Below are positions 8,698 through 43,100 of a stretch of 64,000 bases of DNA, one piece after another. The first letter of the stretch is position 1; each line of letters starts with the position of its first letter. The translations under genes and the position numbers were made by a program. Origin of the DNA: Minisyncoccota bacterium (GTDB lineage: Bacteria; Patescibacteriota; Minisyncoccia; Phycocordibacterales; XYD1-FULL-46-19). The DNA is taken from assembly GCA_041663165.1 (NCBI GenBank), contig JBAZRF010000003.1:11364-75363 (forward strand). Reading direction: 5' to 3'. The notes under the pieces are model-generated. The model ran no database searches. It saw only the letters and a list, made by a program, of their open reading frames with translations, and was not told the origin of the DNA.

Positions 8698-8774
8698 AAA
8701 ACAAAAACCTTTATCCCGAGCCTGTCGAAGGGCCAAAGAAAAAGGTTTTTGTTTGGTGTAATCAAATTAACAAA

Positions 8775-12722: not shown

Positions 12723-13637
12723 ATGAAGAAAAATAATTTCGATAAAGAAATAACTTGGCTTAAACGTGATCGGCCTGATTATTATGCCCAAGGGATAAAA
12801 AGGCTAAAGACTGGCGAGCCTGTCGACTATGTCATCGGCTGGCGAGAATTTTTGGGCTGTAAAATCGATTTGTCGGCAAAGCCCTTGATTCCGCGCGAAG
12901 AGACTGAATTTTGGGTGGGCGAGGTTTTGAGAAGTTGGACTTCGATGAGCCCGAAGTCCAACTTCGCGAAACCGAACAAAGCGGCGTGCGAAGTCGCATT
13001 TAGTTCCACAAAAAACGACTTCTCACAACCGCTTAGAGTCCTCGATTTGTTTGCTGGTTCCGGCTGCATCGGCCTGGCCATTCTTAAACATATTCCTAAC
13101 GCCCATGTTACTTTTGCCGAGAAAGATCCGAAACTTTGCGAGCAAATTAAAAAAAATCTCTCTCTCTTTCCCCCGACAACCCGTAAGGGTGCCCAAGGGT
13201 TGTCGGGTCGAGCGCGGGTCATTCAATCAGACATTTTTCAAGCTTATCGAAGTCGAACTTCGATAAGCCCTAAAAAGTTGGGGATAAAGTATACAAAAAA
13301 CCCTTATTTATTGAAGTTGGACTTCGTGCAAGAGAAATTCGACGTTATCTTCGCTAATCCACCCTATGCCGCCACTAGCAAAATGAAATTAATTAGCCCA
13401 TCGGTGCTCCAGTGGGAACCGAAAAAGGCGGTGCTTGGTGGCGTTGACGGCTTAACTTTTATCAAAAAATTTCTCAAACAAGCCAAAGATCATTTAAATA
13501 CTAATGGGCGAATTTATCTCGAATTTGGTCAGGGGCAAAAAACGAAAATTGAGAAGTTGATTAAACAGTTCGACTACGCTCACTGCCGATTTCATCGGGA
13601 TCAATTCGGCAAATGGCGCTTCGTGGTGATAGAATAA
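12723..13637 (+). CDS. prmC: Release-factor glutamine N5-methyltransferase PrmC/HemK
   Basis: NPPY motif (FANPPY) and SAM-binding DLFAGSGCIG. About 25-30 aa longer than typical because of in-frame repeat inserts. Confidence 0.8.
   Translation: MKKNNFDKEITWLKRDRPDYYAQGIKRLKTGEPVDYVIGWREFLGCKIDLSAKPLIPREETEFWVGEVLRSWTSMSPKSNFAKPNKAACEVAFSSTKNDFSQPLRVLDLFAGSGCIGLAILKHIPNAHVTFAEKDPKLCEQIKKNLSLFPPTTRKGAQGLSGRARVIQSDIFQAYRSRTSISPKKLGIKYTKNPYLLKLDFVQEKFDVIFANPPYAATSKMKLISPSVLQWEPKKAVLGGVDGLTFIKKFLKQAKDHLNTNGRIYLEFGQGQKTKIEKLIKQFDYAHCRFHRDQFGKWRFVVIE
12931..13026. repeat. Composite palindromic element cluster in prmC (GAAGTTGGACTTCG, CGAAGTCCAACTTCG and a family-B unit)
   Basis: Nested inverted repeats. 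Encodes an extra about 30 aa (WTSMSPKSNFAKPNKAACEVAFSSTKNDFS). Confidence 0.7.
13245..13327. repeat. Palindromic elements in prmC (perfect palindrome TTATCGAAGTCGAACTTCGATAA, then AAAAACCCTTATTTATTGAAGTTGGACTTCG)
   Basis: The second unit is the reverse-orientation copy of the uvrC unit at 41078-41110. Confidence 0.65.
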
Positions 13638-14273: not shown

Positions 14274-14309
14274 ACAAGTTTTTTAAAAGTAATAGAGTTA
14301 CAAGTGAAT

Positions 14310-14327
14310 GGTTCTTGTTGTTTCAGG
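14310..14327. repeat. Direct repeat GGTTCTTGTTGTTTCAGG; left boundary of the Cys-rich-ORF cassette
   Basis: Matches 14614-14632 (GGGTTCTGTTGTTTATGG). An ACTTCAGGA motif sits next to both copies. Confidence 0.5.
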
Positions 14328-14354
14328 TGCTTAACTTCAGGAAGGAGGCCGCTT

Positions 14355-14573
14355 ATGGCCACAGTCGAGGGTCACGTTCACGTGACCAAAGAGGAAATGG
14401 ACGCTCTTTGCCAGTGTTCATTCCAAGGTACACCGGATGAGAAGAACGCGCAGGGGACAGCCATTCTTGTTCGGATAAGAGACGAGGGCTGCGCTTCTTG
14501 CCGAACGGCCTGGCAGCGGTACATGGCCTCGCACAAGTGCTCACCCTGCCCGGCGGAGGCATCCAACGTGTGA
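14355..14573 (+). CDS. Cys-rich small protein (72 aa) in a GC-rich cassette
   Basis: Consensus SD GGAAGGAGG lies 6 nt upstream. 8 Cys (CQC...CASC...CSPC). GC-rich compared with flanks. Confidence 0.4.
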   Translation: MATVEGHVHVTKEEMDALCQCSFQGTPDEKNAQGTAILVRIRDEGCASCRTAWQRYMASHKCSPCPAEASNV

Positions 14574-14613
14574 ACCCGTTCTGCGCTCGTCCTACTTCAG
14601 GACCTGCGTGGGC

Positions 14614-14632
14614 GGGTTCTGTTGTTTATGGT
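14614..14632. repeat. Direct repeat; right boundary of the Cys-rich-ORF cassette
   Basis: See 14310-14327. Confidence 0.5.
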
Positions 14633-14644
14633 AGGATTATTAAA

Positions 14645-15901
14645 ATGAAAAAAGACGAAAACTATGAGGTAATAGTTATCGGTGGCGGGCCGTCGGGGAT
14701 GATGGCAGCGGGGATTGCCGGTGAGAAAGGCAAACGGGTCTTGTTGTTAGAGAAAAATGAAAGATTGGGCGATAAACTCAAGGCGACTGGCGGCGGGCGG
14801 TGCAATATCACTAATGCCGAGGAGGACAAGGAGGCCTTGCTTCGTCATTATGGCGAGGCTAAAGATTTTCTCCAATCGCCCTTTGCGCAATTTGGCGTGG
14901 CCGATACTTTTAAATTTTTCGAATCGCACGGCTTACCCCTCGTGGTTGAGGCACGCAAACGAGCCTTCCCGGCGACCCAAAAAGCTGAAGATGTTTTTCG
15001 CGTGCTGGAGAAATTCATGCGGGCCGGTAAAGTTACCGTTAAAACCGGCGCTAAGGTAGTGAAATTGATTAAAGATAATGATCAAAAAGTCACGGGAGTG
15101 ATACTTTCAAATCACGACAAGCACTTTGCCTCAAATTTCATTTTCGCCACTGGCGGTCTCTCGCACCCCGAACTGGGCGCCACAGGCGATGGCTTTGCTT
15201 GGCTTCGCTCGCTTGGTCATAAGGTTAAAGAATCTTCGCCCGATATTGTACCGCTCGCGGTTAAAGAGAAGTGGGCTAAGGATCTCTCTGGTGTGTCGCT
15301 CTCGTTTATGAAGATTACTTTTTTCTTAGATGGAGTTAAAAGGTTTTCAAAAAAAGGCAAAATTCTTTTTACTCATTTTGGTTTGTCGAGTCCCCTAATC
15401 CTAAATAGCGCGCGCGAGGTTAAACCGTTAATTCAAACTGGTGGTATCGTTACGGCCACCATCGACACTTGCCCCGATACCGATATCGGTTCGCTTGAAA
15501 AGCAGGTGATCAAAATTTTAGATCAAAATAAAAATAAGGTTTTAAAAAACACCTTACCGGCGCTCGCCCCTGACGGGCTCGCGCCAGCGTTAGCCCTCTT
15601 GCTTGCCAAAAAGCTCAACCTCGATAAAAAAGTCCACAGTATTACCAAAGATGAGCGTCGTGTTATTGTCGATTTGCTCAAAGCTTTGCCTCTCACCATT
15701 ACCGGCCTCATGGGCTTCGATCGTGCCGTGGTCTCCGATGGGGGAGTTGAACTGGCCGAAATTGATCTCCGCACCATGCGCTCGCGTCTCCACCCCAACA
15801 TCTACGTTACTGGCGATCTCCTCAATATCTCCCGCCCCTCCGGCGGCTTCTCTCTCCAACTCTGCTGGACCACAGGGTATGTAGCCGGGAGGAGTGTGTA
15901 A
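14645..15901 (+). CDS. FAD-dependent oxidoreductase, HI0933/BaiN-like flavoprotein family
   Basis: N-terminal Rossmann VIVIGGGPSGMMAAG with HI0933-like layout. The ORF-track start at 14498 is an upstream over-extension into the cassette. Confidence 0.8.
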   Translation: MKKDENYEVIVIGGGPSGMMAAGIAGEKGKRVLLLEKNERLGDKLKATGGGRCNITNAEEDKEALLRHYGEAKDFLQSPFAQFGVADTFKFFESHGLPLVVEARKRAFPATQKAEDVFRVLEKFMRAGKVTVKTGAKVVKLIKDNDQKVTGVILSNHDKHFASNFIFATGGLSHPELGATGDGFAWLRSLGHKVKESSPDIVPLAVKEKWAKDLSGVSLSFMKITFFLDGVKRFSKKGKILFTHFGLSSPLILNSAREVKPLIQTGGIVTATIDTCPDTDIGSLEKQVIKILDQNKNKVLKNTLPALAPDGLAPALALLLAKKLNLDKKVHSITKDERRVIVDLLKALPLTITGLMGFDRAVVSDGGVELAEIDLRTMRSRLHPNIYVTGDLLNISRPSGGFSLQLCWTTGYVAGRSV

Positions 15902-15902
15902 G
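15854..15902 (+). repeat. Repeat copy A: the 3-prime end of the flavoprotein gene (CTCCAACTCTGCTGGACCACAGGGTATGTAGCCGGGAGGAGTGTGTAAG)
   Basis: Repeated at 16682-16762, with a 31-nt internal insertion, and partly at 18393-18425. Confidence 0.85.
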
Positions 15903-16681: not shown

Positions 16682-16762
16682 CTCCAACTCTGCTGGACCA
16701 CGGGGTATGTGCCTTGCCGGCCGTAATCTCGATGAAGGCTGAGCCGGGAGGAGTGTGTAAGG
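16682..16762 (+). repeat. Repeat copy B: a degenerate duplicate of the flavoprotein 3-prime end
   Basis: CTCCAACTCTGCTGGACCACGGGGTATGT, a 31-nt insertion, then GCCGGGAGGAGTGTGTAAGG. Confidence 0.85.
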
Positions 16763-16805: not shown

Positions 16806-18425
16806 ATGCCAGATCGCAGTTTAGACGAAACAACCCTGCCAAGTTCCTATGATTTAAGCCGGATTGATATGACCGGCACGGAGTATGAGGAATTCGAAGG
16901 TCATCAGCTTGGAGAAGTGGTCAATTATAACAATTTAAGAAAGGAGGTTATTGCCCAGTTCGATTTCAAAGAATTTCTCAACTCATACAATAAATCGATT
17001 GAATTTTTTACTGAGAAAGATTTTAAAAATTGCGAATCTGTCGCCGAGAAAATCTTAAGAATAATTACCTCGCCTAAATATCGAAATGGATCTCTGGACA
17101 CCATCAATTTAGAAAAGTTTAAAACTTTCTTTTTAGAAAAAATAAATTTCTGGGTAGAGAAGAATGAACAGATACAGTTTATGTTGCCCGCCTTCCCTTT
17201 TAAGGTTGCCAACCCGCTAAAATCTTCACGTCGAGACGCGGATCTTGCCGAAGTGGGAGCTTTTTGTAAATTTAACGAAATCAACCTACAAATAAAAGAG
17301 ATTTACTCTCCGGGAATACGTTTTATTATTTTTCATGACGGCCATTTATATTATCGGCACTTTCTCCATACCAAAGAAGATGCCGATCGCTACTTCTCTT
17401 CGTTAAATAAATTTGTTGACGCCCTTGGCCTAAAAGAGGTGGTTGAATTGCGAGACGCTTACAAAGAGTTGGAACAAATGGATAATTTTGAAGAAATCTC
17501 TCAAACCGCGAGGCAAGAAATAACTAAGCTTTGGGAGAACTCAGCTTCAAACGAAAAAATATCGCAAATCTTAGAGTCAGCTAAGCAAAATATAAATTTG
17601 TCAGATGTGCCCCTTAATCTATTACGCAAGATCGCTGAGTTTGAAGAATGGGACCTTTCCAACACCGAGAAGGAAATAAAACGAAAAATACAAGAAAAGG
17701 CCAAAAACTGTGCTTTTGAATACATGGTTGTTCAACATGCATTAGAGAAGGCCAACTTTTTTGATTCCCGTGTTCCCAATGGGATTAGGCTCACGGTCCA
17801 TCCAAAAGAGGGGCAAATAGGTATCTACCTAGTTCGGAAAAAAACCTATCTGTTGCCTTGGATGGGGGTGGGGGTTTTGAAAAACAATGGTGAAGTCTCT
17901 GTTCATTATGAAAGTGATTTGATCATGAGTGGTAAGTATCATCCCGTTTTTATTGAAGGGGAGCAATATCCTTTTTATTATAAAGAGGCCGAGATAATTT
18001 ATGAGGGGCTTGAGCAATTTAAGGGGCTGTTTGATTCTGTTGTTCGCGATCTTAAAAAAGATGATTATTATCGAGTTTTTGCTTTTGGCCCCGAATATCA
18101 CAATGTCGAGGTTAGAGAGATACTGTCCAATGTTCATAAGGCGCTAGAAGATCGCCAGATTAGTGACCAGGCTATTTGCAAAAAAGAAAATCTGGATTCA
18201 TTGTTAGAAACGTATAAAGATAATTCAAATATTGAAATAAGGCCAACCGAAGATGAAGTCCCGGTCGGAGTAATTATTTTAAGAGATCGGGTAATTAATC
18301 TTTTATGGGGTACCGAACCGGCCGCCTTTGAAATTACCGATCCTGAAATCGTGGCGAGATATAACGATTATTTTAAAGAGGTTTGGGATAAGACCACGAG
18401 GTATGCCGCCGGGAGGAGTGTGTGA
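16806..18425 (+). CDS. Hypothetical 539-aa protein; N-terminal half possibly Dit1/PvcA-like (isonitrile-synthase family)
   Basis: Segment LPAFPFKVANPLKS...DADLAE...IYSPGIRFIIFHDGH recalls the Dit1/PvcA pattern from memory. The C-terminus ends in the shared repeat (AAGRSV). Confidence 0.45.
   Translation: MPDRSLDETTLPSSYDLSRIDMTGTEYEEFEGHQLGEVVNYNNLRKEVIAQFDFKEFLNSYNKSIEFFTEKDFKNCESVAEKILRIITSPKYRNGSLDTINLEKFKTFFLEKINFWVEKNEQIQFMLPAFPFKVANPLKSSRRDADLAEVGAFCKFNEINLQIKEIYSPGIRFIIFHDGHLYYRHFLHTKEDADRYFSSLNKFVDALGLKEVVELRDAYKELEQMDNFEEISQTARQEITKLWENSASNEKISQILESAKQNINLSDVPLNLLRKIAEFEEWDLSNTEKEIKRKIQEKAKNCAFEYMVVQHALEKANFFDSRVPNGIRLTVHPKEGQIGIYLVRKKTYLLPWMGVGVLKNNGEVSVHYESDLIMSGKYHPVFIEGEQYPFYYKEAEIIYEGLEQFKGLFDSVVRDLKKDDYYRVFAFGPEYHNVEVREILSNVHKALEDRQISDQAICKKENLDSLLETYKDNSNIEIRPTEDEVPVGVIILRDRVINLLWGTEPAAFEITDPEIVARYNDYFKEVWDKTTRYAAGRSV
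18393..18425 (+). repeat. Repeat copy C (ACCACGAGGTATGCCGCCGGGAGGAGTGTGTGA) forming the 3-prime end of the 539-aa ORF
   Basis: 16/16-nt identity with copies A and B over GCCGGGAGGAGTGTGT. Confidence 0.8.
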
Positions 18426-18477
18426 TATAGGAGAAGTTATTTAAATATGCTGTGTAAAGTGCTACCATATTGGCAAT

Positions 18478-19323: not shown

Positions 19324-19360
19324 AAAATAACATCCTTACAAACTTGAGAATGTAAGGATG
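19324..19360. repeat. Hairpin repeat copy 1 (AAAATAA-CATCCTTACA-AACTTGAGAA-TGTAAGGATG)
   Basis: 37/37 identical to 23040-23076. Contains a 10-bp perfect palindrome. Confidence 0.85.
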
Positions 19361-20117: not shown

Positions 20118-22946
20118 TTATTTCAAATTATCTAATAATTGATTAAGCATTTTAACAAGAATATCTTTGTCTGATTGGGGAATTATTTGCCGGTTGCGCC
20201 AGTGCGGACGATCGGCCAGCCAAACGGTCAATTTTATTCTGCGTTCAACGTTCTTTATTTTTCCTCGCTCGATTAATTTTATCATATTATCGATCCTCGC
20301 TTCTAATAACTTTTCCACTAAAGGCTTAAGGTCAAAACTGGCGACAACCTTTTTCATCATTTGTAAGTAAAGAATTAGATCAAAACCGGTATTTGGTTTA
20401 ACGGCAAAATCATTTTTGCCATCACCATCGGCGTCGATTAATAGAGTTGTCGAAGTTCCAGCCGAGACGTTTAAACTGGCTATCGTCATTGGCGTAACGG
20501 GGATATCGGTAAATGATACAGTTGTAGTACTAACACCATCGGTTGTTTCTTCTTGCTCGTAACTAAAAATACCAAAGCTTAACCCCGCTAATTTTATCGC
20601 ATAATTAGCTGGGGCGAGCCCGTTTCCGAAGGGTAAAACAATGTATTTACCCTCGCCAAAATCAAGATATTTGCTATTAGGGATATCCTCTTCGATCAAT
20701 TGCAAATCTGAATTCGGGTTCGGATTAGGAATAAGCCCAGTGTGATTGCCTAAATTATCATAAGCATTAAGCGAGACGGGCGAATGGACGCTAATGAGTA
20801 AGTTTTTTTGCCCTGCCGTTGGAGTCGGTTTGGCTAGAGAAAAATAATTTGGTAAATCAATAGTGTTTTTGATGAGATTTGTGATTTCTTGTTGCACAGA
20901 GCTCATTTCGAAAATATCTTTATGCACCCAACTTTTATTATTAACCTCATTGTATTTCTGTATATCAAGGTAAAAATCTCTATGACTCCCCACTGCTCCG
21001 GTGGCGCTTGGCGAAACCACCGTCCCGTCGCCGTCGGTGGTGAGGAGGGGGTGGATGTCGAGCTTGTTGTCTTTAGCTAAATACTCGGTGGTTTTGAGGG
21101 TGGGGATGCCCCAACCGGCGATTTGAATTACCTCGGTCGTTGTCGGGAATTGCCAATTGTCGAGGTTATCATGAGTAATCTGACTTTTGGTGAACATTTG
21201 GGAATTTAAAATATTGGGGGTCGCCAGGTTGGTTACCGCCGGTTTGGCTCGGCCGTCAAGTTGACCAAGCGCAAATTGCTGGAGTTTGTCGGCCGATGAA
21301 ATTTCGGTGCCGTAGCTAGCCAAACCGGGCATAATTTTTACCGCTGACTGGTCGAATTTAATTACTGGTTCTTGCACGGTGGCAAAATATTTGGTTGAAG
21401 GGAGGAGATTGTAAGCTGACGGCATATTCTCAACCGCTTGGCGCGCGACCGATTGATTAAGGAGAAAGCCGTAACCTAAGGCTTGATCAGCGCCATGGAG
21501 CATGGTGGGGATAGCTTCAGGCGTGCCGAGTTGTGGTACCGCTACCAAAATTACTTTATCAATTTTGTCGACTAAATCGCTTTGGTTAGAGGTTTTCATT
21601 TCTTGTAATTTTTGCATTAAAGCCTTTGCCACCAAACCCCCGTTTGAGTGGGCAACAATTGTCACCTTGCCATTTTTGGAGCGGTTGGCTAATTTTTGAA
21701 TCTCGGCGATCATGTAGGGAAGTTGTCCGGCCGACAAGTCGGAAGTATAAGAAATACCCTTTGTTGTCGTTGCCCCGCGCGCAACCACTTTATCTAAATC
21801 AAAACGCCAATCATAAGGCAGGGGTTCAAAATCGGCAATATCGCCAGCGGCCACCATTTTATTCATTGATTTGATGAAACCATCATAAATCGGCATGAAG
21901 CCGAGAAAAGCGTTATCAATTACTTCGCGGGTGTAGATTGAAGGATCAACACTCTCGCCAGCGGTCGTCATAAATAATTTACGGGCATCATCGTTGCGGT
22001 TAGGCACCCACAATTCGTTCTCACAATTAAACAACGTGCAACCCGGTTCTTGGCGATACAAGAAGCTGGCTTCGACACCGGGGATAAAAACAACACTTGA
22101 GAAACCGAACGGCGAGGTGGTAAAAGAATTCTCATCACTTACGGTTGGCGGGATAACTGCTGGCGTTTGGCCAATCCAGGGGTCAAAAAGGACATTAGCG
22201 CCAACGATCTTATCACCTAAACCGTTTGGGTTAAGATCGACATGGTAGGGTCCGCTATTATCGCCCCACCAATTATGGCGCGCGTCCATTGCTCGACCAT
22301 AATAGTCTCGCAGGCCAGCCTCGGTATTATGATGAATTTGACTTTGCGTGATATTGGCCGTGCCGTCTATGAAACCAAAACCAACATTATTATTGGTCAA
22401 AATACTGGCGCTGATGGTGGTGGAGCCACTTTCTTGATAAATACCTAGCGGATTGTTGGTTAACTGCGAATCGGTGATCAGTGATTCGCCGCCAGCGGCG
22501 TGGATAGCCGCGCCACCAGAATAAAAACCAGCATAACGAGCGATCACGTGAGCGAAATTAAGATGACCGGTGGCGAGGACATATAATTGATCCCAATCGC
22601 GCATCGCCGGTATGGTGGTGGTGCCATCGCCGTTTGAGTCGCCACTAATCGAATCATCTTTGTAAGAAGTAAAATAAATTTCGTCACCGGTGTTGCCTTG
22701 GGCGCTAAGCTCCCCGTTGATGTAAAAAGCGGATTTATTTTTGAATTTGACAATAGTACCCGGTTCGAGGGCGAGGGTTACGCCGTTATTAATATAAACG
22801 TCATCGGTTATGATGTAGGGGCTAGCAGCTTTGGTCCAAGTGGTATTAGTGCTTAGGCTGGCACCCGAAATTATCGTCTCAGCGAAAAGTGACAGAGGCG
22901 AGCTTAATAAAAGTAACGTTATCAAAAAAATAAATCTTTGAAACAT
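20118..22946 (-). CDS. Secreted 942-aa protein: N-terminal parallel beta-helix repeats, then an alpha/beta-hydrolase (lipase/esterase-like) domain
   Basis: Signal peptide; NxxGxxF beta-helix-like repeats; nucleophile-elbow-like VAHSNGG; long C-terminal region of unknown function. Confidence 0.55.
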   Translation of the reverse strand: MFQRFIFLITLLLLSSPLSLFAETIISGASLSTNTTWTKAASPYIITDDVYINNGVTLALEPGTIVKFKNKSAFYINGELSAQGNTGDEIYFTSYKDDSISGDSNGDGTTTIPAMRDWDQLYVLATGHLNFAHVIARYAGFYSGGAAIHAAGGESLITDSQLTNNPLGIYQESGSTTISASILTNNNVGFGFIDGTANITQSQIHHNTEAGLRDYYGRAMDARHNWWGDNSGPYHVDLNPNGLGDKIVGANVLFDPWIGQTPAVIPPTVSDENSFTTSPFGFSSVVFIPGVEASFLYRQEPGCTLFNCENELWVPNRNDDARKLFMTTAGESVDPSIYTREVIDNAFLGFMPIYDGFIKSMNKMVAAGDIADFEPLPYDWRFDLDKVVARGATTTKGISYTSDLSAGQLPYMIAEIQKLANRSKNGKVTIVAHSNGGLVAKALMQKLQEMKTSNQSDLVDKIDKVILVAVPQLGTPEAIPTMLHGADQALGYGFLLNQSVARQAVENMPSAYNLLPSTKYFATVQEPVIKFDQSAVKIMPGLASYGTEISSADKLQQFALGQLDGRAKPAVTNLATPNILNSQMFTKSQITHDNLDNWQFPTTTEVIQIAGWGIPTLKTTEYLAKDNKLDIHPLLTTDGDGTVVSPSATGAVGSHRDFYLDIQKYNEVNNKSWVHKDIFEMSSVQQEITNLIKNTIDLPNYFSLAKPTPTAGQKNLLISVHSPVSLNAYDNLGNHTGLIPNPNPNSDLQLIEEDIPNSKYLDFGEGKYIVLPFGNGLAPANYAIKLAGLSFGIFSYEQEETTDGVSTTTVSFTDIPVTPMTIASLNVSAGTSTTLLIDADGDGKNDFAVKPNTGFDLILYLQMMKKVVASFDLKPLVEKLLEARIDNMIKLIERGKIKNVERRIKLTVWLADRPHWRNRQIIPQSDKDILVKMLNQLLDNLK

Positions 22947-23039: not shown

Positions 23040-23081
23040 AAAATAACATCCTTACAAACTTGAGAATGTAAGGATGTTATT
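23040..23081. repeat. Hairpin repeat copy 2 (15-bp stem), lying in the divergent promoter region
   Basis: AATAACATCCTTACA-AACTTGAGAA-TGTAAGGATGTTATT. Confidence 0.85.
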
Positions 23082-23387: not shown

Positions 23388-23425
23388 CATAATATCATTC
23401 TTACAAACTGGAGTTTGTTGGGATG
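23388..23425. repeat. Hairpin repeat copy 3 (degenerate)
   Basis: CATCATTCTTACAAAC-TGGA-GTTTGTTGGGATG. Confidence 0.6.
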
Positions 23426-28347: not shown

Positions 28348-30810
28348 ATGGAAAAATCTAAAGCTTTCGTTATTTGGTTCAAAGATCTGGGTATCAGTGA
28401 CGTCCCGCTAGTTGGCGGTAAAAACGCCGCTCTCGGTGAAATGTGTAATAATCTAACGCAATTGGGCGTAAATGTGCCCGATGGCTTTGCCATTACCGCT
28501 TATGCCTACAGCTATTTTATTGAAAAAACCGGCCTGAAGAATCGAATCAAAGATTGCTTGGAGGGTTTAAATACCCACAACATTAATGATCTGCAAAAAC
28601 GTGGCAAACAAGTTCGCGACATGATCATTAAAGAGCAATTACCCGACGAATTAACAGTTGAGATCACTAATGCTTATCGAGAACTCTCCGCTAACTACCA
28701 TAAGCCAACTATTGATGTGGCCGTGCGTTCATCGGCGACGGCTGAAGATTTGCCTGGCGCCTCGTTTGCCGGCCAGCAAGAGACTTATCTTAACGTGGTC
28801 GGCGAAGCGATGCTTTTAGAATCGGTGAGGAAGTGTATTGCCTCGCTCTTTACCAATCGCGCCATTTCTTATCGCGTCGATAAGGGCTTTTCAATGTTCG
28901 ATATTGCGCTCTCGGTGGGCGTACAAAAAATGGTTAGGAGCGACGTGGGCGCTTCGGGCGTGATGTTTTCAATTGATACCGAAACTGGTTTTGACAAGGT
29001 AGTGGTAATTGACGGTGCTTACGGTTTGGGCGAGATGGTGGTGCAAGGTCAAGTAATCCCTGATGAATTTGTGATTTTCAAACCATCGCTCGAACGGGGT
29101 TTCTACCCGATTTTATCGAAGACACTGGGCCAAAAGGATGTCAAATTAATTTATGGTAAAAAGGGAACAGTCCGAGTCAAAGTTGCGCCTAAAGAACAAA
29201 CCAAGTTCTGCCTAACCGATGATGAAGCGACCAAAATGGCTACTTGGGCGGTCACGATTGAAAAATATTTTTCGAATCGCCGCGGTAAATACCAGCCAAT
29301 GGATATGGAATGGGCTAAGGACGGCGTAACTGGTGAGCTCTTTATTGTTCAGGCCCGACCCGAGACTATTCATGCCGAGGCTGACAAGAGTGTTTACAAA
29401 GAATGGGTACTCAAAAAATCCGCCTCCGCCAAAGGCTCCGGCGAGACAAGGGAACTAATTAAGGGAATTGCCATTGGTTCAAAGATCGCGACTGGTCCGG
29501 TGCGGATCATTCGCGACGCTAAACAAATGAACACCTTTAAGAAGGGCGAAATCTTGGTAACCGAAATTACCGATCCTGATTGGGAGCCGATTATGAAGAT
29601 TGCTTCAGCGATTATTACGGAGAAGGGTGGACGCACCAGCCACGCCGCCATCGTTTCGCGCGAGCTCGGCGTACCGTGCATTGTTGGCACCGGCACCGCC
29701 ACGAAAAAATTAAAAAATGGCCAAGTAGTTACTGTTGACTGCTCATCAGGCAAAGACGGAATTGCCTATGCTGGTAAAATTGATTTCGAAATTGTTGAGC
29801 ACCACTTAGATCGCTTGCCGAAAACGCGCACCAAGGTGATGGTGAACATCGGTTCGCCTGAAGACGCAATGCGTAATTATTATTTACCGGTCGCCGGTGT
29901 TGGCTTGGGACGCGTTGAATTTATCATCAGCTCCTATATCAAAGTTCACCCAAATGCGCTAATTGATTATGATAAGTTAAAAAAGGCTAAAGATGCTAAA
30001 ACGAAAAAGTTAATTAAGCAAATTGATGAGCTAACAACCGAATATCAAGGCCAAAAGAAGACCAATTATTATGTCAACGAATTGGCCGAGGGCGTGGCCC
30101 TGATCGGCGCCGCTTTTTGGCCCAATGAAGTAATTATTCGTTTCTCCGATTTTAAAACCAACGAATATAGCACCTTAATTGGCGGGGATTTATATGAGCC
30201 GAGGGAGGAAAATCCGATGATCGGCTGGCGGGGCGCCTCTCGCTACTATGATCCTAAATTTAAAGCCGCTTTTGCTCTCGAGTGCCGGGCGCTCGCCAAG
30301 GTGCGCAAAGAAATGGGGCTCACTAACATCGTCACGATGGTACCATTCTGTCGCACTGTTGAGGAGGGCAAAGCTGTACTTGAATTGATGGAAGATAATG
30401 GCTTGGCTCGCATGGAGGATCCGAGCTTGAAAATTTATGTGATGTGCGAAATTCCGTCGAACGTGACCGAAGCCGATGAATTCTTGGAAATTTTTGATGG
30501 GATGTCGATTGGCTCAAACGATCTAACGCAATTAACGCTCGGTCTTGATCGTGATTCAGGGATTGTCAGTCATATTGCCAACGAAAATCACCCGTCAGTT
30601 AAAAAATTAATCGAAGTGGCCATTAGTGCTTGCCGACGTCATAATAAATACGTTGGCATTTGCGGGCAGGCCCCGTCTGATTACCCCGAATATGCCGAGT
30701 TCTTAATTAAGAATGGTATTGAGAGCATTTCGCTCAATCCCGACACCGTTATTAAAACCTTGCCGATCATCGAAGCGGCGGAGAAAAAGTATCCAACGCC
30801 GAATGCGTAG
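28348..30810 (+). CDS. ppsA: Phosphoenolpyruvate synthase (pyruvate, water dikinase)
   Basis: GGRTSHAAIVSRELGVPCIVG phosphohistidine motif, PEP-utilizing C-terminal domain, and a TATAAT just upstream. The ORF track starts at 28324. Confidence 0.9.
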   Translation: MEKSKAFVIWFKDLGISDVPLVGGKNAALGEMCNNLTQLGVNVPDGFAITAYAYSYFIEKTGLKNRIKDCLEGLNTHNINDLQKRGKQVRDMIIKEQLPDELTVEITNAYRELSANYHKPTIDVAVRSSATAEDLPGASFAGQQETYLNVVGEAMLLESVRKCIASLFTNRAISYRVDKGFSMFDIALSVGVQKMVRSDVGASGVMFSIDTETGFDKVVVIDGAYGLGEMVVQGQVIPDEFVIFKPSLERGFYPILSKTLGQKDVKLIYGKKGTVRVKVAPKEQTKFCLTDDEATKMATWAVTIEKYFSNRRGKYQPMDMEWAKDGVTGELFIVQARPETIHAEADKSVYKEWVLKKSASAKGSGETRELIKGIAIGSKIATGPVRIIRDAKQMNTFKKGEILVTEITDPDWEPIMKIASAIITEKGGRTSHAAIVSRELGVPCIVGTGTATKKLKNGQVVTVDCSSGKDGIAYAGKIDFEIVEHHLDRLPKTRTKVMVNIGSPEDAMRNYYLPVAGVGLGRVEFIISSYIKVHPNALIDYDKLKKAKDAKTKKLIKQIDELTTEYQGQKKTNYYVNELAEGVALIGAAFWPNEVIIRFSDFKTNEYSTLIGGDLYEPREENPMIGWRGASRYYDPKFKAAFALECRALAKVRKEMGLTNIVTMVPFCRTVEEGKAVLELMEDNGLARMEDPSLKIYVMCEIPSNVTEADEFLEIFDGMSIGSNDLTQLTLGLDRDSGIVSHIANENHPSVKKLIEVAISACRRHNKYVGICGQAPSDYPEYAEFLIKNGIESISLNPDTVIKTLPIIEAAEKKYPTPNA

Positions 30811-30818
30811 TTAATTTA

Positions 30819-30855
30819 GAAGTCGTACTTCAAGTGAGCCCGAAGTCCGACTTCG
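30819..30855. repeat. Intergenic palindromic elements (GAAGTCGTACTTC then CCCGAAGTCCGACTTCG)
   Basis: Same GAAGTC...GACTTC motif family as the intragenic copies. Confidence 0.6.
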
Positions 30856-30945
30856 AAATTATTTAAACCTAGAAAAAAGAAAACCCGCCACACGCCAACG
30901 GTGGGTTCTCCCAGTGCGTTGATGCGGGGCGGGGACAGGCAGGGG

Positions 30946-31486: not shown

Positions 31487-32548
31487 ATGAAAACAATATT
31501 TTTTGAATTAGAAAATTGGGAAAAAGAGTATATCGAAGCGAGTTCGGGGTCGGATTCGCAAAGTTCGAAATCGGATCTGGCTACGCGAGATACGATTTCG
31601 AACTTTGTTTTTGTCGATGGGATTTTGGATGAGGAGACGGTTGGTAAATTAACAGACGAGCAAAAGGGCACAGATATTATTTCGATTTTTGTTGACTCGG
31701 TAATCAATGCAAAAATTTTGGCGAGTTTTCCCAATCTCAAATTAATTTGCACTCGTTCGACCGGCTATGATCACATTGATATCGAAGCGTGTAAGGCCAA
31801 GGGCGTAGCGGTGGCGACTGTGCCCAGTTATGGCGAAGAGACGGTGGCGGAATACGCTTTTGCTTTAATGCTCACGCTCTCACGCAAAATTTTTGAAAGT
31901 TACGACCGCATTAAAAAGACGGGGAGCTTTGACCTTACCGGCATGCGCGGTTTTGATTTAAATGGTAAAACTCTAGGAGTAATTGGCACGGGCAAGATCG
32001 GCAAAAATGTGATTGAGATTGCCAAAGGCTTTAATATGAAAGTGATTGCTTATGATAAATTCCCCGACGAGGCTTATAAACAAAAAATGGGTTATGACTA
32101 CTTAATGATGGACGAAGTGCTGGCTCAAGCTGATATTTTGACCTTGCATGTGCCCTACCTGCCCGAAAACCACCATTTAATCAATGCCGAAATAATTGCC
32201 AAAATGAAAAAGGGTGTTTACTTAATCAACACCGCTCGCGGAGCGTTGGTTGAGACGGAAGCTTTGCTCAAGGGTCTTAAAGGTGGAGTGATTGCCGGCG
32301 CCGGTTTAGATGTGCTTGAAGAAGAGGGGATAATTAAAGATGAGCTAAACTTCTTGACGGGTGCTCACCCGGGCGAGCACGATTTGCGGGTGGTGCTCGA
32401 AAATCACGTTCTTGTCGATATGCCAAATGTTGTCGTCACGCCCCACAACGCCTTCAACACTTGGGAGGCTCTGCAACGCATCCTCAATACGACGCTTGAA
32501 AATATAAAATCTTTCTCTTCCGGAATGCCGCAAAACGTGGTAAAGTAG
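31487..32548 (+). CDS. D-isomer-specific 2-hydroxyacid dehydrogenase (D-lactate/phosphoglycerate dehydrogenase family)
   Basis: NAD-binding GVIGTGKIG with catalytic R/E/H layout. Carries a family-A palindromic insert near the N-terminus. Confidence 0.8.
   Translation: MKTIFFELENWEKEYIEASSGSDSQSSKSDLATRDTISNFVFVDGILDEETVGKLTDEQKGTDIISIFVDSVINAKILASFPNLKLICTRSTGYDHIDIEACKAKGVAVATVPSYGEETVAEYAFALMLTLSRKIFESYDRIKKTGSFDLTGMRGFDLNGKTLGVIGTGKIGKNVIEIAKGFNMKVIAYDKFPDEAYKQKMGYDYLMMDEVLAQADILTLHVPYLPENHHLINAEIIAKMKKGVYLINTARGALVETEALLKGLKGGVIAGAGLDVLEEEGIIKDELNFLTGAHPGEHDLRVVLENHVLVDMPNVVVTPHNAFNTWEALQRILNTTLENIKSFSSGMPQNVVK
31558..31606. repeat. Palindromic element, family A variant (CAAAGTTCGAAATCG-GATCTGGCTACGCGAGATA-CGATTTCGAACTTTG)
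   Basis: Perfect 15-bp terminal inverted repeats. The core loop is identical to 2191-2231. Confidence 0.8.
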
Positions 32549-32552
32549 CGGA

Positions 32553-33848
32553 GTGAAATTCGAAATACAGAAGAAAATGCAGGCTGGTCTAGGCCGGGCC
32601 GGAGTAATTCATACAGCGCATGGCGATATTGAGACGCCGGCGTTTGTAACGGTGGGGACTAAGGCGACGGTTAAGGCGCTCACGCCCGAGATGGTTAATT
32701 CGCTCGGTGCGCAGGTGGTGCTCGCCAACACTTACCATTTATATCTTCAGCCGGGAGATGAACTGATAAAAAAAGCCGGCGGTCTCCATAAGTTTATGAA
32801 CTACAACGGCCCAGTGATGACCGACTCGGGCGGTTTTCAGGTCTTCTCTCTTGGCGCGGCGTTCGGCGAAGGGGGTATTTCGAAATTTGTTAAAAACTCT
32901 GATAATCTGTGTACAAAATCGTCAAATAAGTCTTATTTTTCGAAATCCAACTTCGAACACGAGGAGGCCATCGTCAAGTTGGCCAAAATTGACGAAGACG
33001 GTGTAACTTTTAAATCAATTATTGACGGTTCGGAGCATCGCTTTACACCGGAGCGGTCGATGCAAATTCAGCATAATCTTGGTGCAGATATTATTTTTGC
33101 TTTTGATGAATGTACTTCACCTCTTGCCGATTATGAATATCAAAAGCAAGCGATGGAGCGAACCCATCGCTGGGCGGAACGGTCTTTGGCTGAACATCAG
33201 AGATTAAACGCCGAAGCTGGTTCGAAGTCGGATCTGGCCCCCACTTCGCCAAGGCTCCGAGGGGTAAATACGCGAGATACGACTTCTAACCCAGCCCTGT
33301 TTGGTATTGTGCAGGGTGGTCGACATCAAGATTTGAGAGAAGAAAGCGCGCGATTTTTGGCCGGATTATGTCCGCCTACTGGCGGATTTGACGGCTTTGG
33401 CATTGGTGGATCATTTAATAAAGAAGACATGGGCACGGCTGTTGGTTGGGTGAGCCAGATTTTGCCCGAAGATAAACCGCGACACTTGCTGGGCATTGGT
33501 GAACCAGCCGATATTATTGAGGGTATTAAAAATGGCGCCGATACTTTTGATTGTGTCACGCCTACCCGGATGGCCCGCAACGGGACGCTAATGGTTAAGG
33601 GTGGAAGACTTAATATCTTTAACGCTCAATATCGCGAAGATTTTGGCCCGATCGAAGAGGGTTGTGGTTGTTACACTTGCCAGCTCAACTCTGATGGCAC
33701 GGCCAAATATTCTCGCGCTTACTTGGCCCATCTCTTTCGCGCGAAAGAAATTCTCGCTTCAACTCTCGCTTCGATTCATAACCTTTATTTTTTGGTAAAC
33801 TTTACAAAACAAATTCGGAGTGATATTTTAGAAAACAGACTTGGCTAA
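32553..33848 (+). CDS. tgt: Queuine tRNA-ribosyltransferase (tRNA-guanine transglycosylase)
   Basis: VMTDSGGFQVFSL, zinc site CGCYTC, ending HNLYF. About 55 aa longer than typical because of two in-frame inserts. Confidence 0.85.
   Translation: MKFEIQKKMQAGLGRAGVIHTAHGDIETPAFVTVGTKATVKALTPEMVNSLGAQVVLANTYHLYLQPGDELIKKAGGLHKFMNYNGPVMTDSGGFQVFSLGAAFGEGGISKFVKNSDNLCTKSSNKSYFSKSNFEHEEAIVKLAKIDEDGVTFKSIIDGSEHRFTPERSMQIQHNLGADIIFAFDECTSPLADYEYQKQAMERTHRWAERSLAEHQRLNAEAGSKSDLAPTSPRLRGVNTRDTTSNPALFGIVQGGRHQDLREESARFLAGLCPPTGGFDGFGIGGSFNKEDMGTAVGWVSQILPEDKPRHLLGIGEPADIIEGIKNGADTFDCVTPTRMARNGTLMVKGGRLNIFNAQYREDFGPIEEGCGCYTCQLNSDGTAKYSRAYLAHLFRAKEILASTLASIHNLYFLVNFTKQIRSDILENRLG
32876..32960. repeat. 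AT-rich palindromic insert in tgt (AAATTTCGAAATTT ... TTTTTCGAAATCCAACTTCGAA)
   Basis: A perfect 14-bp palindrome plus a CGAAATCCAACTTCG unit. Encodes an extra about 30 aa after the FSLG motif. Confidence 0.6.
33219..33291. repeat. Family-A palindromic element with an internal 32-nt insertion, in-frame in tgt
   Basis: TTCGAAGTCGGATCTGGC, then an insert, then CGCGAGATACGACTTCTAA. Confidence 0.75.
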
Positions 33849-42109: not shown

Positions 42110-43100
42110 TATGGGAGTGTTAGAGCCATTCGCTAATTTTTCTTTTGTTAATTACCCCAGCTTCTGGGCAATCTTGCTGATTTTCTTTGTGGCCGTTTTT
42201 TATCTCGGCCGATTTTGGCAAAGTCGCGAGAGTCATTTGCAAATTTTGATTAATGAGGCCAATCTCAAGACCCAACAAATTCAGGAGTTGGAAAAGGTGA
42301 ATCAAGAACTTGAGTCTAAAAATCGAGAGCTTTATTCTAAAGAACTCGGCCTGACTCTGGCTAATAAGAAACTCCAATCACTTGAAGAGGCCAAGTCAAA
42401 ATTTGTTTCAGTCACAACCCATCAACTAAGAACACCGCTGGCGGCGATTAAGTGGACGCTCGACATGGCGGCTAAGGGCCAGCTGGGAACAGTTACTGAT
42501 GAACAAAAAAAATATTTGTCGCAAGGACTAATAAGTACGGAGCGTGTAATCTCGATCGTAAATGATCTGCTCAAAATAGATGCCATTGACGCTGAGCGCG
42601 CTGATTACACTTTTCGTCCGACTGACTTGGTCAAATTAATTTCTAATATCATTTTCGAATTCACTAATCAAGCGGCGATTAAGAAAATAAATTTTCTCTT
42701 TCTTAAACCGCAAAACACCATTCCTTTAGTTGAGATGGACCCCGATAAGGTCCGGATGGTTTTAGAAAATCTAATTGATAATGCCATTAAATATACCTCA
42801 TCGGGCGGTAAGGTTACCATCAAGATATCTGACGAGCGAATAAATAGTGCCGAGGGGGCAATAGAAATCAAAATTATTGACTCTGGCATCGGTATTCCCT
42901 CAAGCGAGACGGACAAAATTTTCCAAAAATTCTTTCGAGCGTCTAATGCTATTAAGGCTGAGCCGGACGGTTCTGGTTTAGGGCTATTTATTGCTAGAGA
43001 TATTATTGAGAAGCATAACGGGGCCATTTGGTTTGAAAATGATCCCGGGGATGGGACCGTCTTTTCCTTCACTTTACCTTTGCACCAAAAGAAAGTATAA
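42039..43100 (+). CDS. Sensor histidine kinase (TM helix, coiled-coil, HisKA and HATPase_c domains)
   Basis: H-box TTHQLRTPLAAIKW; N/G-box DNAIKYT...GSGLGL. The start is uncertain; ATG 42108, just after a TATAAT, is an alternative. Confidence 0.75.
   Translation: MRPMPKPIVLHWPTIENYAGDWYNMGVLEPFANFSFVNYPSFWAILLIFFVAVFYLGRFWQSRESHLQILINEANLKTQQIQELEKVNQELESKNRELYSKELGLTLANKKLQSLEEAKSKFVSVTTHQLRTPLAAIKWTLDMAAKGQLGTVTDEQKKYLSQGLISTERVISIVNDLLKIDAIDAERADYTFRPTDLVKLISNIIFEFTNQAAIKKINFLFLKPQNTIPLVEMDPDKVRMVLENLIDNAIKYTSSGGKVTIKISDERINSAEGAIEIKIIDSGIGIPSSETDKIFQKFFRASNAIKAEPDGSGLGLFIARDIIEKHNGAIWFENDPGDGTVFSFTLPLHQKKV

Follow-up and report, generated by a model that had tools for sequence, protein, structure and literature searches.

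What does the extra sequence in the prmC gene at this locus consist of, and how did it come to be there? The gene, which encodes a release-factor N5-glutamine methyltransferase, lies at positions 12723-13637 on the forward strand (915 nt, 304 aa) of the 64-kb stretch of DNA that was analysed, called the window below. Its translated open reading frame contains the two motifs by which PrmC/HemK is recognised, the catalytic NPPY motif (ANPPY, aa 211-215) and the glycine-rich AdoMet motif (FAGSGCIG, aa 110-117). The protein scored 125.3 bits with the subfamily model TIGR00536, above the cut-off of 115.5, and 166.1 bits with the equivalog model TIGR03534, for which the cut-off is 199.1. In the latter match 225 profile positions were stretched over 286 residues, and approximately 61 inserted residues interrupted it. 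Because of the repeat inserts, scores with equivalog models fall below cut-off here, which poses a practical difficulty in annotating MAGs.

An earlier note on this DNA put PrmC at 25-30 aa longer than usual and ascribed the difference to two clusters of nested palindromic elements. The length estimate holds only against the E. coli and Thermotoga proteins (276-294 aa), whose N-terminal domain is longer than that of the window's clade. Within the clade the size had been underestimated: the segment from PRxETE to ANPPY is 159 aa long in the window, whereas 74 relatives have a median length of 102 aa, so that about 57 aa are extra. PrmC ranges from 216 to 334 aa among relatives, and inserts account for part of this length variation in the clade. 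The closest PrmC homologue, P0002 (77% identical), has the same inserts. Most of the 74-120 PrmC relatives are without the extra segments, and the syntenic locus L002 lacks exactly the second cluster; protein-level conservation of the inserts, which the note named as refuting its reading, is thus not seen.

An AF2 model of the window PrmC had a pLDDT of 85, and its top PDB match was the E. coli PrmC-RF1 complex (2b3t_A; E 5e-18, TM 0.65/0.71), as expected of the PrmC/HemK architecture, a class I methyltransferase fold that follows a helical N-terminal domain. Low pLDDT was confined to aa 71-100, 150-160 and 173-203, the remainder exceeding 90, and values were below 50-65 in all three insert segments. 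The insert sites, aa 67-103, 150-162 and 172-202, are thus predicted to be loops of low confidence, the rest of the PrmC fold being modelled with confidence. There are three of them instead of two, the hairpin at 13172-13207 being a separate site.

Hairpin units within prmC

Two units lie at the first site. Unit 1a (12923-12973) is a long hairpin, a type-B variant, whose 22-nt arms are 91% complementary and which was matched by a covariance model at 12921-12975 (E 1.5e-7). Its perfect 14-bp stem pairs 12931-12944 with 12952-12965 around the loop ATGAGCC, folding gave a dG of -33.3 and a z of -8.3, and the unit codes for aa 67-84 of PrmC, EVLRSWTSMSPKSNFAKP. Unit 1b (12986-13026) is a type-A hairpin with the arms GTGCGAAGTCG and CGACTTCTCAC and a variant of the 19-nt loop, CATTTAGTTCCACAAAAAA. 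It gave a covariance-model match of 64 bits at 12980-13032 (E 3.6e-19) and a folding z of -4.3, and codes for aa 88-102, CEVAFSSTKNDFS. The same unit is present at the same prmC site in L005, L008 and L114. The RNA folding z for this first cluster as a whole was -8.9.

The hairpin at 13172-13207 consists of CCCGACAACCC and GGGTTGTCGGG separated by a 14-nt loop, has a folding z of -3.3 and codes for aa 150-162, PPTTRKGAQGLSG. It is common to some relatives at the orthologous site, and in L002 it carries a compensatory change from an A-T to a G-C pair (CCCGACGACCC/GGGTCGTCGGG). The hairpin had been labelled 'family-B'; the window contains no second copy of it beyond chance, nor were dispersed copies found in the data examined.

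Cluster 2 (13238-13327), at the remaining site, codes for aa 172-202 and, compared with L002, adds a net 81 nt (27 codons) to the gene. It folds as a single long hairpin with arms at 13248-13266 and 13308-13326 (z -4.7). Within it, unit 2a (13242-13268; z -5.8, covariance-model E 0.001) reads GCTTATCGAAGT-CGA-ACTTCGATAAGC. This unit had been described as a perfect palindrome, which is not strictly so, the 12-bp perfect stem being interrupted by a 3-nt loop. Unit 2b (13293-13328, forward strand), ACAAAAAACCCTTATTTATTGAAGTTGGACTTCGTG, belongs to family F3, codes for KNPYLLKLDF and has direct copies in tgt and uvrC; by itself it folds weakly, with a stem of no more than 5 bp (z 0.05).

The motifs of the earlier note were found at 12931-12944 (GAAGTTGGACTTCG), 12952-12966 (CGAAGTCCAACTTCG) and 13296-13327 (AAAAACCCTTATTTATTGAAGTTGGACTTCG), and its description of the extra length of prmC as nested palindromic repeat units was borne out. 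Four of the five occurrences of GAAGTYSRACTTC in the window are in prmC, with 0.02 expected in the window (0/100 shuffles), and CGAAGTNNNACTTCG occurs seven times in the window with at most one mismatch, against 0.19 expected. The window has 26 hairpins whose perfect stem reaches 9 bp or more, compared with 11.4 ± 3.5 in shuffles; three of the 26 are in prmC.

Dispersed copies and the pairing of their stems

The covariance model detected approximately 10 copies in the window, located in dus, prmC, a 2-hydroxyacid dehydrogenase gene, tgt and uvrC and at one intergenic site, so that nine of the ten are intragenic. The repeat units are about 27-55 nt long, with hairpin z-scores of -4 to -9. In the main family the arms (GTGCGAAGTCG ... 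CGACTTCTCAC) are conserved and the loops are exchangeable, being 19 nt long in type A and 21-22 nt in type B. The dus gene contains a type-A unit at 2185-2237, read as KSDLATRDTTS (72.7 bits), and a type-B unit at 2850-2905, read as VRSRISGSLEKRL (39.6 bits). A type-A unit with a 15-bp perfect stem is found in the dehydrogenase gene (31557-31609, 61.9 bits), and the intergenic copy, of type B (30809-30864, 43.1 bits), lies directly 3′ of the stop codon of a PEP synthase-like gene. The type-A unit of tgt (33222-33288, 35.7 bits) has a 30-nt hairpin nested in its apical TAC loop. In uvrC two units adjoin at 41825-41937, one of type A (41825-41877, 67.2 bits), read as RSRIWLREKRLL, and one of type B (41882-41937, E 0.47). 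The same gene carries a mosaic unit at 41204-41251, in which the right half of a type-A loop is fused to a type-B loop between GAGGTC-type arms, and which forms an inverted repeat with 41517-41564.

Family F3 has forward-strand copies in tgt (32922-32957, read as NKSYFSKSNFE) and uvrC (41075-41110, read as KNPYFAKSNFE); with the prmC copy, all three in the window share one orientation and one frame. That prmC shares units with uvrC had been pointed out before and is correct, and tgt, dus and the dehydrogenase gene also carry the same families. The uvrC copy, cited then as 41078-41110, had however been taken for a reverse-orientation version of the prmC unit. Instead, prmC and uvrC carry AAAAACCCTTATTT in a single orientation and frame, and the flip is limited to the terminal hairpin (GAAGT-TGG-ACTTC versus GAAAT-CCA-ACTTC). 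A Pfam scan of the 26 window ORFs revealed no transposase, which says little because the window is less than 10% of a genome. Rfam 15 at the gathering threshold returned three tRNAs only from the window, and no family for the repeat units.

The exact 25-nt core of the type-A unit was present in 29 metagenome loci and 32 distinct contexts. Of these contexts 26 (81%) lie in frames that stay open for 120 codons or more, compared with 86% of all bases, and coding DNA is therefore not avoided. Among the 26 intragenic copies 19 are sense and seven antisense; both orientations thus do occur in coding DNA, as had been proposed from the uvrC comparison, which itself does not show it. In the sense direction the core was read as KSDLATRDTTS (13 copies), RSRIWLREKRLL (4) and EVASGYARNDFS (2), and in the antisense direction as RSRISRSQIRLR (5) and EVVSRVARSDF (2). 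Five frames are used, and the antisense frame that bears a TAG was used 0 times (P about 0.009). When the covariance model was run on 80 PrmC-selected GTDB loci, copies were obtained in the closest relatives only, and the rest of the 1.22 Mb searched gave no match at E<=0.01. The main family is confined to one Paceibacterota sub-lineage, where it occupies many unrelated housekeeping genes. Subfamilies with longer common arms recur, ACTTGTGCGAAGTC...CTCACAAGT being found in L084, L087 and L103.

Stem and flank pairing was measured by counting pairs in a fixed register, which replaced the noisy flank-flank pair counts from RNAfold (4.4 vs 3.3 pairs, P 0.009). Stem cells were paired in 88.6% of cases, compared with 77.7 ± 1.0% in shuffles (0/500) and 33-41% when the partner was slid. 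The inner stem pairs alternate between CG and UA (13/11, 16/8 and 20/4) with zero broken pairs. Flanks outside the arms differ between copies and are still complementary (81.9% vs 72.1%; 0/500). In the mRNA sense, G.T mismatches (29) were not above A.C mismatches (48); the pairing is therefore strand-symmetric, as DNA palindromy predicts. Generic hairpin density over the 80 loci was left unused, being confounded by AT-rich genomes.

Several other identities were considered for the units. A DNA uptake signal was rejected, the 6-mers of the arms being near expectation (GAAGTC 21 and GACTTC 17 per 64 kb). Intrinsic terminators do not fit intragenic hairpins that lack a T-run, and with regard to a phage origin the 25-nt core had no exact match in IMG/VR.

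Orthologous sites and the origin of the units

At L002, whose PrmC is 63% identical, cluster 2 is absent as a clean 81-nt in-frame gap. At this site, the sole filled/empty comparison, no direct duplication was recognisable and the original loop residues had been replaced; for the type-A unit neither a target-site duplication nor a clean filled/empty junction was obtained. L113 carries cluster 2 with flipped loops. Nucleotide identity between the window and L113 was 0.77 in cluster 2 vs 0.61 in the gene core, which fits constraint, recent conversion or independent insertion; only this value was used, the insert identity with L002 (0.50) being meaningless as the inserts misalign. The loop of unit 2a is CGA in the window and TCG in L113 and L005, and the loop inversions seen between orthologous copies are CGA/TCG and TTGGA/TCCAA. 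In L113 the orthologue of the dehydrogenase unit differs by three compensatory pair changes, and that of the nested tgt copy lies at L113 7343-7425. Hairpins of 30-33 nt are nested in the apical TAC loop in tgt of the window and L113 and, independently, in L092, and a 16-nt palindrome is nested in an F3-type hairpin in the prmC gene of L114. All length differences seen were multiples of three (81, 30, 33 and 12 nt).

The first PrmC site has the outer stem GGTTTTGAGA..TCTCAAAACC with differing cores in the window and L002, and a shorter GTTTTG..CAAAAC hairpin in L008. These form a series, with none in L114, a short hairpin in L008 and a long one in L002 and the window, whose polarity is undecidable because palindromes also delete easily. 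The sequence GAGGTTTTG could belong to the host or to an element, and this arm is also present in uvrC and L091. Different relatives have unrelated hairpins or none at the same PrmC site, and distant relatives carry a different repeat, CCTGCCCTGAGCGGAGCCGAAGGG, in the same PrmC loops, read as PALSGAEG or, in the other orientation, as PFGSAQG. Several inserts are found at orthologous sites across species and are therefore old and stably kept.

The extra sequence of prmC is a pile-up of short, hairpin-forming dispersed repeats at three loop sites, probably produced by selfish or mutational spread and by growth at hairpin apices. On the best reading the units would be palindromic mini-elements, selfish or mutational in nature, that resemble the Rickettsia palindromic elements (RPEs) and differ in being far shorter, in their nesting and in their translation as disordered loops. 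The frame statistics suggest translation of the units within the host protein, where they would form disordered surface loops that are tolerated and not needed, and it is the dispersed copies that suggest mobility. Spread would take place at the DNA level; copies that break the frame, introduce a stop codon or hit a structured part of the protein would be lost, and the survivors would pile up in the same few tolerant loops. Growth may occur mainly at the hairpin apices, where new hairpins nest in loops and loops are swapped or inverted. The likely routes would be events at extruded hairpins, either cleavage or a switch of template, and gene conversion among copies with common arms.

Selection for a functional structure would explain the clean covariation equally well. 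The units would then be an mRNA stabiliser or RNase site, a translation pause that aids folding, or a DNA cruciform or hairpin site for a nucleoid or replication protein, and they would have ended up in coding loops because so compact a genome leaves little room between genes. Such an explanation accounts for pairing that is strong and clean in every stem tier, for the compensatory changes in the 13172 hairpin and the orthologous dehydrogenase copy, for the persistence of inserts at orthologous sites across species, and for a cluster 2 that is conserved more than the core of its host gene. We nevertheless consider it unlikely. The units lie in both orientations to transcription, match no Rfam family, and follow the tolerance of protein loops and not gene starts, gene ends or domain borders; moreover, a given site can hold an unrelated hairpin or none in another relative. 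The mRNA sense shows no excess of G.U, which speaks against a role specific to RNA and would be compatible with one at the DNA level. Selection might alternatively act on the peptides, as adaptive lineage-specific extensions of PrmC and other enzymes that provide, for example, surfaces for CPR-specific release factors or ribosomes. Retention of some inserts at the same site across species and the strong bias to the hydrophilic KSDLATRDTTS frame (13/26) would agree with this, but one DNA unit yields unrelated peptides from five frames in different proteins, the same units occur in unrelated enzymes, close relatives (L002) and most of the clade lack the inserts, and pLDDT is low in all three segments. 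Adaptive extension therefore seems very improbable.

The palindromes could also have been born locally in each gene by template switching during replication (quasi-palindrome correction or extension), with no mobile element involved. Loop inversions between orthologues, stem extensions that go past the family arms, vary by copy and remain complementary, and the shared outer stem with different cores at the first PrmC site, together with the shorter L008 hairpin, are all features that this process would leave. It cannot, however, yield the same exact asymmetric core of loop plus arm in 32 unrelated contexts of several genomes, or the recurring subfamilies with longer arms. Local birth is thus an improbable origin, and template switching is more plausible as a contributing process. 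Palindromic chimeras do occur in amplified metagenomic DNA, and chimeric inverted repeats from assembly or amplification were weighed as well. The independent ENA assembly L001 has an identical prmC with all inserts, the inserts of relatives are found again in assemblies of different samples at JGI, NCBI and ENA, and every host ORF stays open, which leaves an artefact with a negligible chance.

Dispersed repeats that accumulate in tolerant loops, the reading that we prefer, may have a wider form, which we put forward tentatively and regard as rather doubtful. The units might represent, in CPR bacteria, a class of structure-directed mini-element that has not been described so far. Its members would be hairpins some 30-50 nt long, without coding capacity or target-site duplication, that spread into the apices of hairpins already present or by inverted flank templating, swap loops between arm-sharing copies, and build translated surface loops in essential proteins throughout the lineage. 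If true, it would add a separate mode both to genome parasitism and to the ways in which protein loops arise. The locus offers a tractable system for the spread of hairpin DNA without a recognisable transposase and for the origin of new protein loops, and the covariance model is usable as a lineage marker and to mask inserts ahead of phylogenetic or dN/dS work.

Relation to known repeat systems

Translated palindromic repeats inside essential genes are rare in textbooks, with the RPEs of Rickettsia as the standard example. No description of such elements in CPR/Patescibacteria was found in the literature searched, a limited search that is no proof of novelty.

The units resemble REP sequences, which are imperfect palindromes of 20-40 nt with high copy number, in being short palindromes present at about 10 per 64 kb. 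RAYT-mobilised REPs and REPINs form clusters through insertion into or beside existing copies (PMC3116915; PMC3733652), a habit that the units here would share. The great majority of REPs lie outside genes, and in P. fluorescens just 14 of about 1,067 16-mers overlap a gene (PMC3116915), whereas 81% of the copies here are intragenic. REPs are also tagged with GTAG or CGTC at one end. The unit ends here have no such tag: the arms start with GTGCGAAGTC and end with GACTTCTCAC, and GTAG occurs solely within the loop, on the complementary strand. No RAYT (Y1 transposase) gene was detected by Pfam among the 26 window ORFs, which cover part of the genome only. A MITE is recognised by its terminal inverted repeats, by the target-site duplication around them and by its partner IS; here the arms are themselves the inverted repeats, and no IS was seen in the window. 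The cyanobacterial SDRs of Elhai et al. (2008) are reportedly very small, dispersed and palindromic, and are said to be able to nest and to lie within genes; on that description they would resemble the units here, which are likewise very small, dispersed, nesting and palindromic.

Hairpin-forming repeats, the RHEs, have invaded compact sponge mitochondrial genomes (PMC2800124), and a similar invasion is proposed here; the RHEs, however, are organellar and mostly intergenic. In the mitochondria of Nematomorpha, inverted repeats lie within genes that are still translated to functional proteins (PMC6649704), and are embedded in coding sequence as here. Those palindromes are again organellar, and their arms code for conserved protein regions and are not dispersed families in extra loops.

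RPEs lie in frame in unrelated housekeeping genes, and the peptides that they add are thought to be compatible with the fold (PMC10969869). The units here are likewise dispersed palindromic repeats in frame in protein-coding genes, and both occur in host-dependent bacteria with small genomes. They differ in size and reading, RPEs being about 100-150 bp long with one conserved peptide per family and the present units 27-55 nt long and read in five frames, and in architecture, with conserved arms and exchangeable loops, nesting at the apex and several units stacked per loop. The host, too, is Candidatus Paceibacterota (Patescibacteria) and not Rickettsia, which sets the units apart from RPEs as these are described. 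The window shows an RPE-like phenomenon in Patescibacteria, with much smaller, modular and nesting units.

Extent and position of the prmC inserts

The host of the window DNA is a metagenome-assembled genome of Candidatus Paceibacterota (CPR/Patescibacteria), and an NCBI/JGI/ENA entry under this name has a 100% identical PrmC protein. Its prmC ORF (HemK/PrmC methyltransferase, 12723-13637, + strand) encodes 304 aa with NPPY and FAGSGCIG motifs, and prmC of identical sequence is present in an independent ENA assembly. In profile searches the protein exceeded the TIGR00536 cut-off and scored 166 bits with TIGR03534 (cut-off 199), 286 residues covering 225 profile positions. The top PDB match of an AlphaFold model (pLDDT 85, pTM 0.84) was 2b3t_A, the E. 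coli PrmC-RF1 complex. The median length of PrmC homologs in the clade, of which a short N-terminal domain is a feature, is 259 aa (range 216-334 aa, n=120).

An earlier note on this DNA had estimated the extra sequence at 25-30 aa in two palindromic clusters. This was too low: the segment from PRxETE to ANPPY is 159 aa long, against a median of 102 aa (IQR 99-106) in 74 relatives, about 57 aa over the clade baseline. The additions occupy three sites rather than two, at aa 67-103, 150-162 and 172-202, and low-confidence stretches of the model coincide with these sites only (block means 63/47/52, 54 and 64/51/47, the rest above 90).

The motifs quoted in the note were all recovered in place. 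GAAGTYSRACTTC occurs five times in the window (0.02 expected), with four copies in prmC, and CGAAGTNNNACTTCG, allowing one mismatch, seven times (0.19 expected). Cluster 1 (114 nt, units at 12923-12973 and 12986-13026) has a folding energy of -53.7 kcal/mol (z -8.9), the hairpin at 13172-13207 a z of -3.3, and cluster 2 (13238-13327; z -4.7) is a single long hairpin with arms at 13248-13266 and 13308-13326. The window contains 26 hairpins with perfect stems of 9 bp or more, compared with 11.4 +/- 3.5 in dinucleotide shuffles, and three of the 26 fall inside prmC. The palindromic signal in prmC is far beyond chance.

In the relative L002, which keeps the order BipA, RNase T, PPIase, PrmC and whose PrmC is 63% identical, cluster 2 is missing as a clean 81-nt gap. 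Site 1 of L002 retains the outer stem GGTTTTGAGA...TCTCAAAACC around a different inner hairpin, and between the window and L002 the 13172 hairpin shows a compensatory change from CCCGACAACCC/GGGTTGTCGGG to CCCGACGACCC/GGGTCGTCGGG. Alignments of 25 and 120 relatives contained from none to several loop inserts at identical positions, and the extra prmC DNA consisted of hairpins, often of other families, in all expanded relatives inspected at the DNA level. A check of whether unrelated PrmC sequences conserve the insert as protein, the refuting condition set in the note, was negative. The insert length differences observed (81, 30, 33 and 12 nt) are all multiples of three. Inserts in the dehydrogenase gene, tgt and prmC are common to the window and the related locus L113 at orthologous sites, yet have diverged; the divergence of the dehydrogenase copy includes three compensatory pairs. 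Identity between the two is 77% for cluster 2, 61% for the gene core and 43% for third codon positions.

The repeat family and its distribution

Window-wide repeat finding and a scan for shared arms defined a superfamily whose units share the arms GTGCGAAGTCG / CGACTTCTCAC and mainly have one of two types of loop. The type-A loop is 19 nt long, with variants including GATCTGGCTACGCGAGATA, CATCTGGCTACGCGAGAAA, CATTTAGTTCCACAAAAAA (in the prmC copy at 12986-13026) and GACTTAGTTACACAAAGTA. The type-B loop is 21-22 nt (for example GACTTCAAGTGAGCCCGAAGTC); the unit at 12931-12965 in prmC is a variant of this type. A third unit, F3 (…AAAAACCCTTATTT..GAAGTYSRACTTCG), is present in prmC, tgt and uvrC. 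The uvrC copy, which the note had described as a reversal of the prmC unit, is a direct one: the 14-nt AAAAACCCTTATTT agrees between the two genes in both orientation and frame, and the inversion is limited to the loop of the terminal hairpin (TGG vs CCA).

A covariance model trained on 24 type-A copies matched about ten window sites. Three of these belong to prmC, two to dus, one or two to uvrC, and one each to the 2-hydroxyacid dehydrogenase gene and tgt; a further site is intergenic and directly follows the stop codon of a PEP synthase-like gene. We also searched 80 GTDB loci (1.22 Mb) picked solely for encoding a PrmC relative. Matches were confined to the closest relatives (L004, L005, L007, L008, L013) plus L113 and L114, with none at E<=0.01 in the remainder; the family is therefore restricted to this lineage. 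In PrmC of more distant Paceibacterota the corresponding loops are occupied by another repeat, CCTGCCCTGAGCGGAGCCGAAGGG (L016 10253-10303 and 10490-10540; L038 2630-2680; L068 10442-10494), read as PALSGAEG or PFGSAQG depending on orientation. A shifted frame of such DNA in L068 gives CPERSRR, which is also found in frame elsewhere in the L068 PrmC. The loop, CCCGAGCCTGTCGAAGGGC, of a window hairpin with a 14-bp stem downstream of tRNA-Gln (8699-8754) is similar to this PALSGAEG/CPERSRR-type repeat.

The exact 25-nt type-A core, TCGSATCTGGCTACGCGAGAWACGA, was found at 29 metagenome loci, and together with the window and L005 these gave 32 distinct contexts. Of the 32, 26 (81%) fall in open frames 120 codons or longer, and such frames make up 86% of bases, so the unit does not avoid coding DNA. 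There are 19 sense and 7 antisense copies, in agreement with the note's statement that both orientations occur in coding DNA. Sense copies read KSDLATRDTTS (13), RSRIWLREKRLL (4) or EVASGYARNDFS (2), and antisense copies RSRISRSQIRLR (5) or EVVSRVARSDF (2); the sixth frame has a TAG and is used by none (P about 0.009). The type-A unit is a DNA-level entity, and the frame pattern and the insert lengths in multiples of three are the signatures that would be expected of translated units filtered only for an open frame.

A 9.2 kb metagenome contig (L092) has six covariance-model matches (2206, 6787, 6850, 8726, 8807, 9161), several forming adjacent pairs, so it seems common in the lineage for single genes to be heavily loaded, as prmC and uvrC of the window are. 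The uvrC gene (40703-42109) holds at least five units and its product is only 468 aa long; the match to the RNase H domain stops at profile position 100 of 159, and the 3' end of the gene overlaps a histidine kinase ORF (42039-43100) by 71 nt. The C-terminal part of UvrC may have been lost or remodelled.

Other repeats were also seen in the window. A block of about 50 nt, CTCCAACTCTGCTGGACCACrGGGTATGT..AGCCGGGAGGAGTGTGTAAG, lies at 15854-15902, 16682-16761 and 18392-18426. Two copies are at the ends of an HI0933-like flavoprotein ORF (ending 15901) and a DIT1_PvcA-like ORF (ending 18425), and the middle one ends at 16761 and has a 31-nt insert; the block might mark cassette or recombination boundaries. 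The DIT1_PvcA family gene (16806-18425; pyoverdine/dityrosine biosynthesis, isocyanide synthase-like) is unexpected in a small CPR genome. Identical copies of a 37-nt hairpin, AAAATAACATCCTTACAAACTTGAGAATGTAAGGATG, flank both sides of an LCAT/lipase-like ORF (942 aa, minus strand, 20118-22946); with a diverged third copy nearby, they occupy 19324-19360, 23040-23081 and 23389-23425. Upstream of the HI0933-like gene is a GC-rich spacer of about 340 nt (14296-14632; 52-60% GC vs 43.6% overall), which has no counterpart in L002, no Rfam match at E<=1 and a fold z-score of only -1.2.

Maintenance of the hairpin and changes at its apex

In the 24-copy alignment 88.6% of cells pair, compared with 77.7 +/- 1.0 in shuffles (0/500) and 33-41% with a slid partner. 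Three of the inner pairs alternate between CG and UA (13/11, 16/8, 20/4) with no broken pairs. The outer flanks of the 32 identical-core copies differ by copy and subfamily and are still complementary (81.9% vs 72.1 +/- 1.2, 0/500; slid controls 36-46%). The hairpin of the unit is maintained. In mRNA orientation there are 29 G.T pairs and 48 A.C pairs; because G.T is not in excess, the complementarity is strand-symmetric and DNA-palindrome-like, and does not look RNA-specific.

Repeat dynamics are concentrated at the hairpin apex. The type-A unit of tgt has a 30-nt hairpin nested in its apical TAC loop, a single event, since the orthologous L113 copy has it too; in L092 an independent 33-nt hairpin is nested in the same triloop. 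A palindrome, TCCGCCAGCTGGCGGA, is nested within an F3-type hairpin in L114 prmC. Cluster 2 orthologs differ by loop inversion (GAAGT-CGA-ACTTC in the window, GAAGT-TCG-ACTTC in L113 and L005), TTGGA likewise being swapped for TCCAA, and at uvrC 41204-41251 a type-A half is joined to a type-B loop in a mosaic. Within the cluster 2 ortholog at L113 1530-1585, GTCCAACCTCGTAAAAAA is repeated 2.5-fold in tandem and reads as SNLVKKSNLVKNLV, indicating that units also grow by local tandem duplication.

Origin of the inserts and relation to known elements

The best-supported reading of these sequences is that three tolerant loops of prmC were probably colonised by selfish or mutational palindromic mini-elements, translated as disordered segments. 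An artefact is excluded, as independent assemblies carry the inserts. An adaptive role for the inserted protein is contradicted both by reading in multiple frames and by the absence of inserts from close relatives, and palindromes of purely local genesis cannot explain one 25-nt core in 32 contexts. A DNA-level function of the hairpins has a low probability, and clean covariation and long retention at orthologous sites keep it under consideration.

If prmC was colonised by mini-elements, units could have moved by insertion directed to the hairpin apex, by palindrome extension through template switching, or by gene conversion between arm-sharing copies. All of these candidate routes fit the data, which do not separate them. 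None of the 26 window ORFs scanned encodes a transposase, a negative of little weight given how small a part of the genome the window is, and a full-text literature search found no account of such elements in CPR bacteria.

REP/REPIN sequences are defined by lying outside genes and by a GTAG or CGTC tag (PMC3116915; PMC3733652), and the units here do not fit this definition. The target-site duplication and partner IS of MITEs were not recognised in the window. The Rickettsia palindromic elements (RPEs) are similar in kind to the prmC units (PMC10969869). However, RPEs are about 100-150 bp long and prmC-type units 27-55 nt, and unlike RPEs the units described here use five reading frames, have modular arms and loops, nest at hairpin apices and reside in another host phylum.
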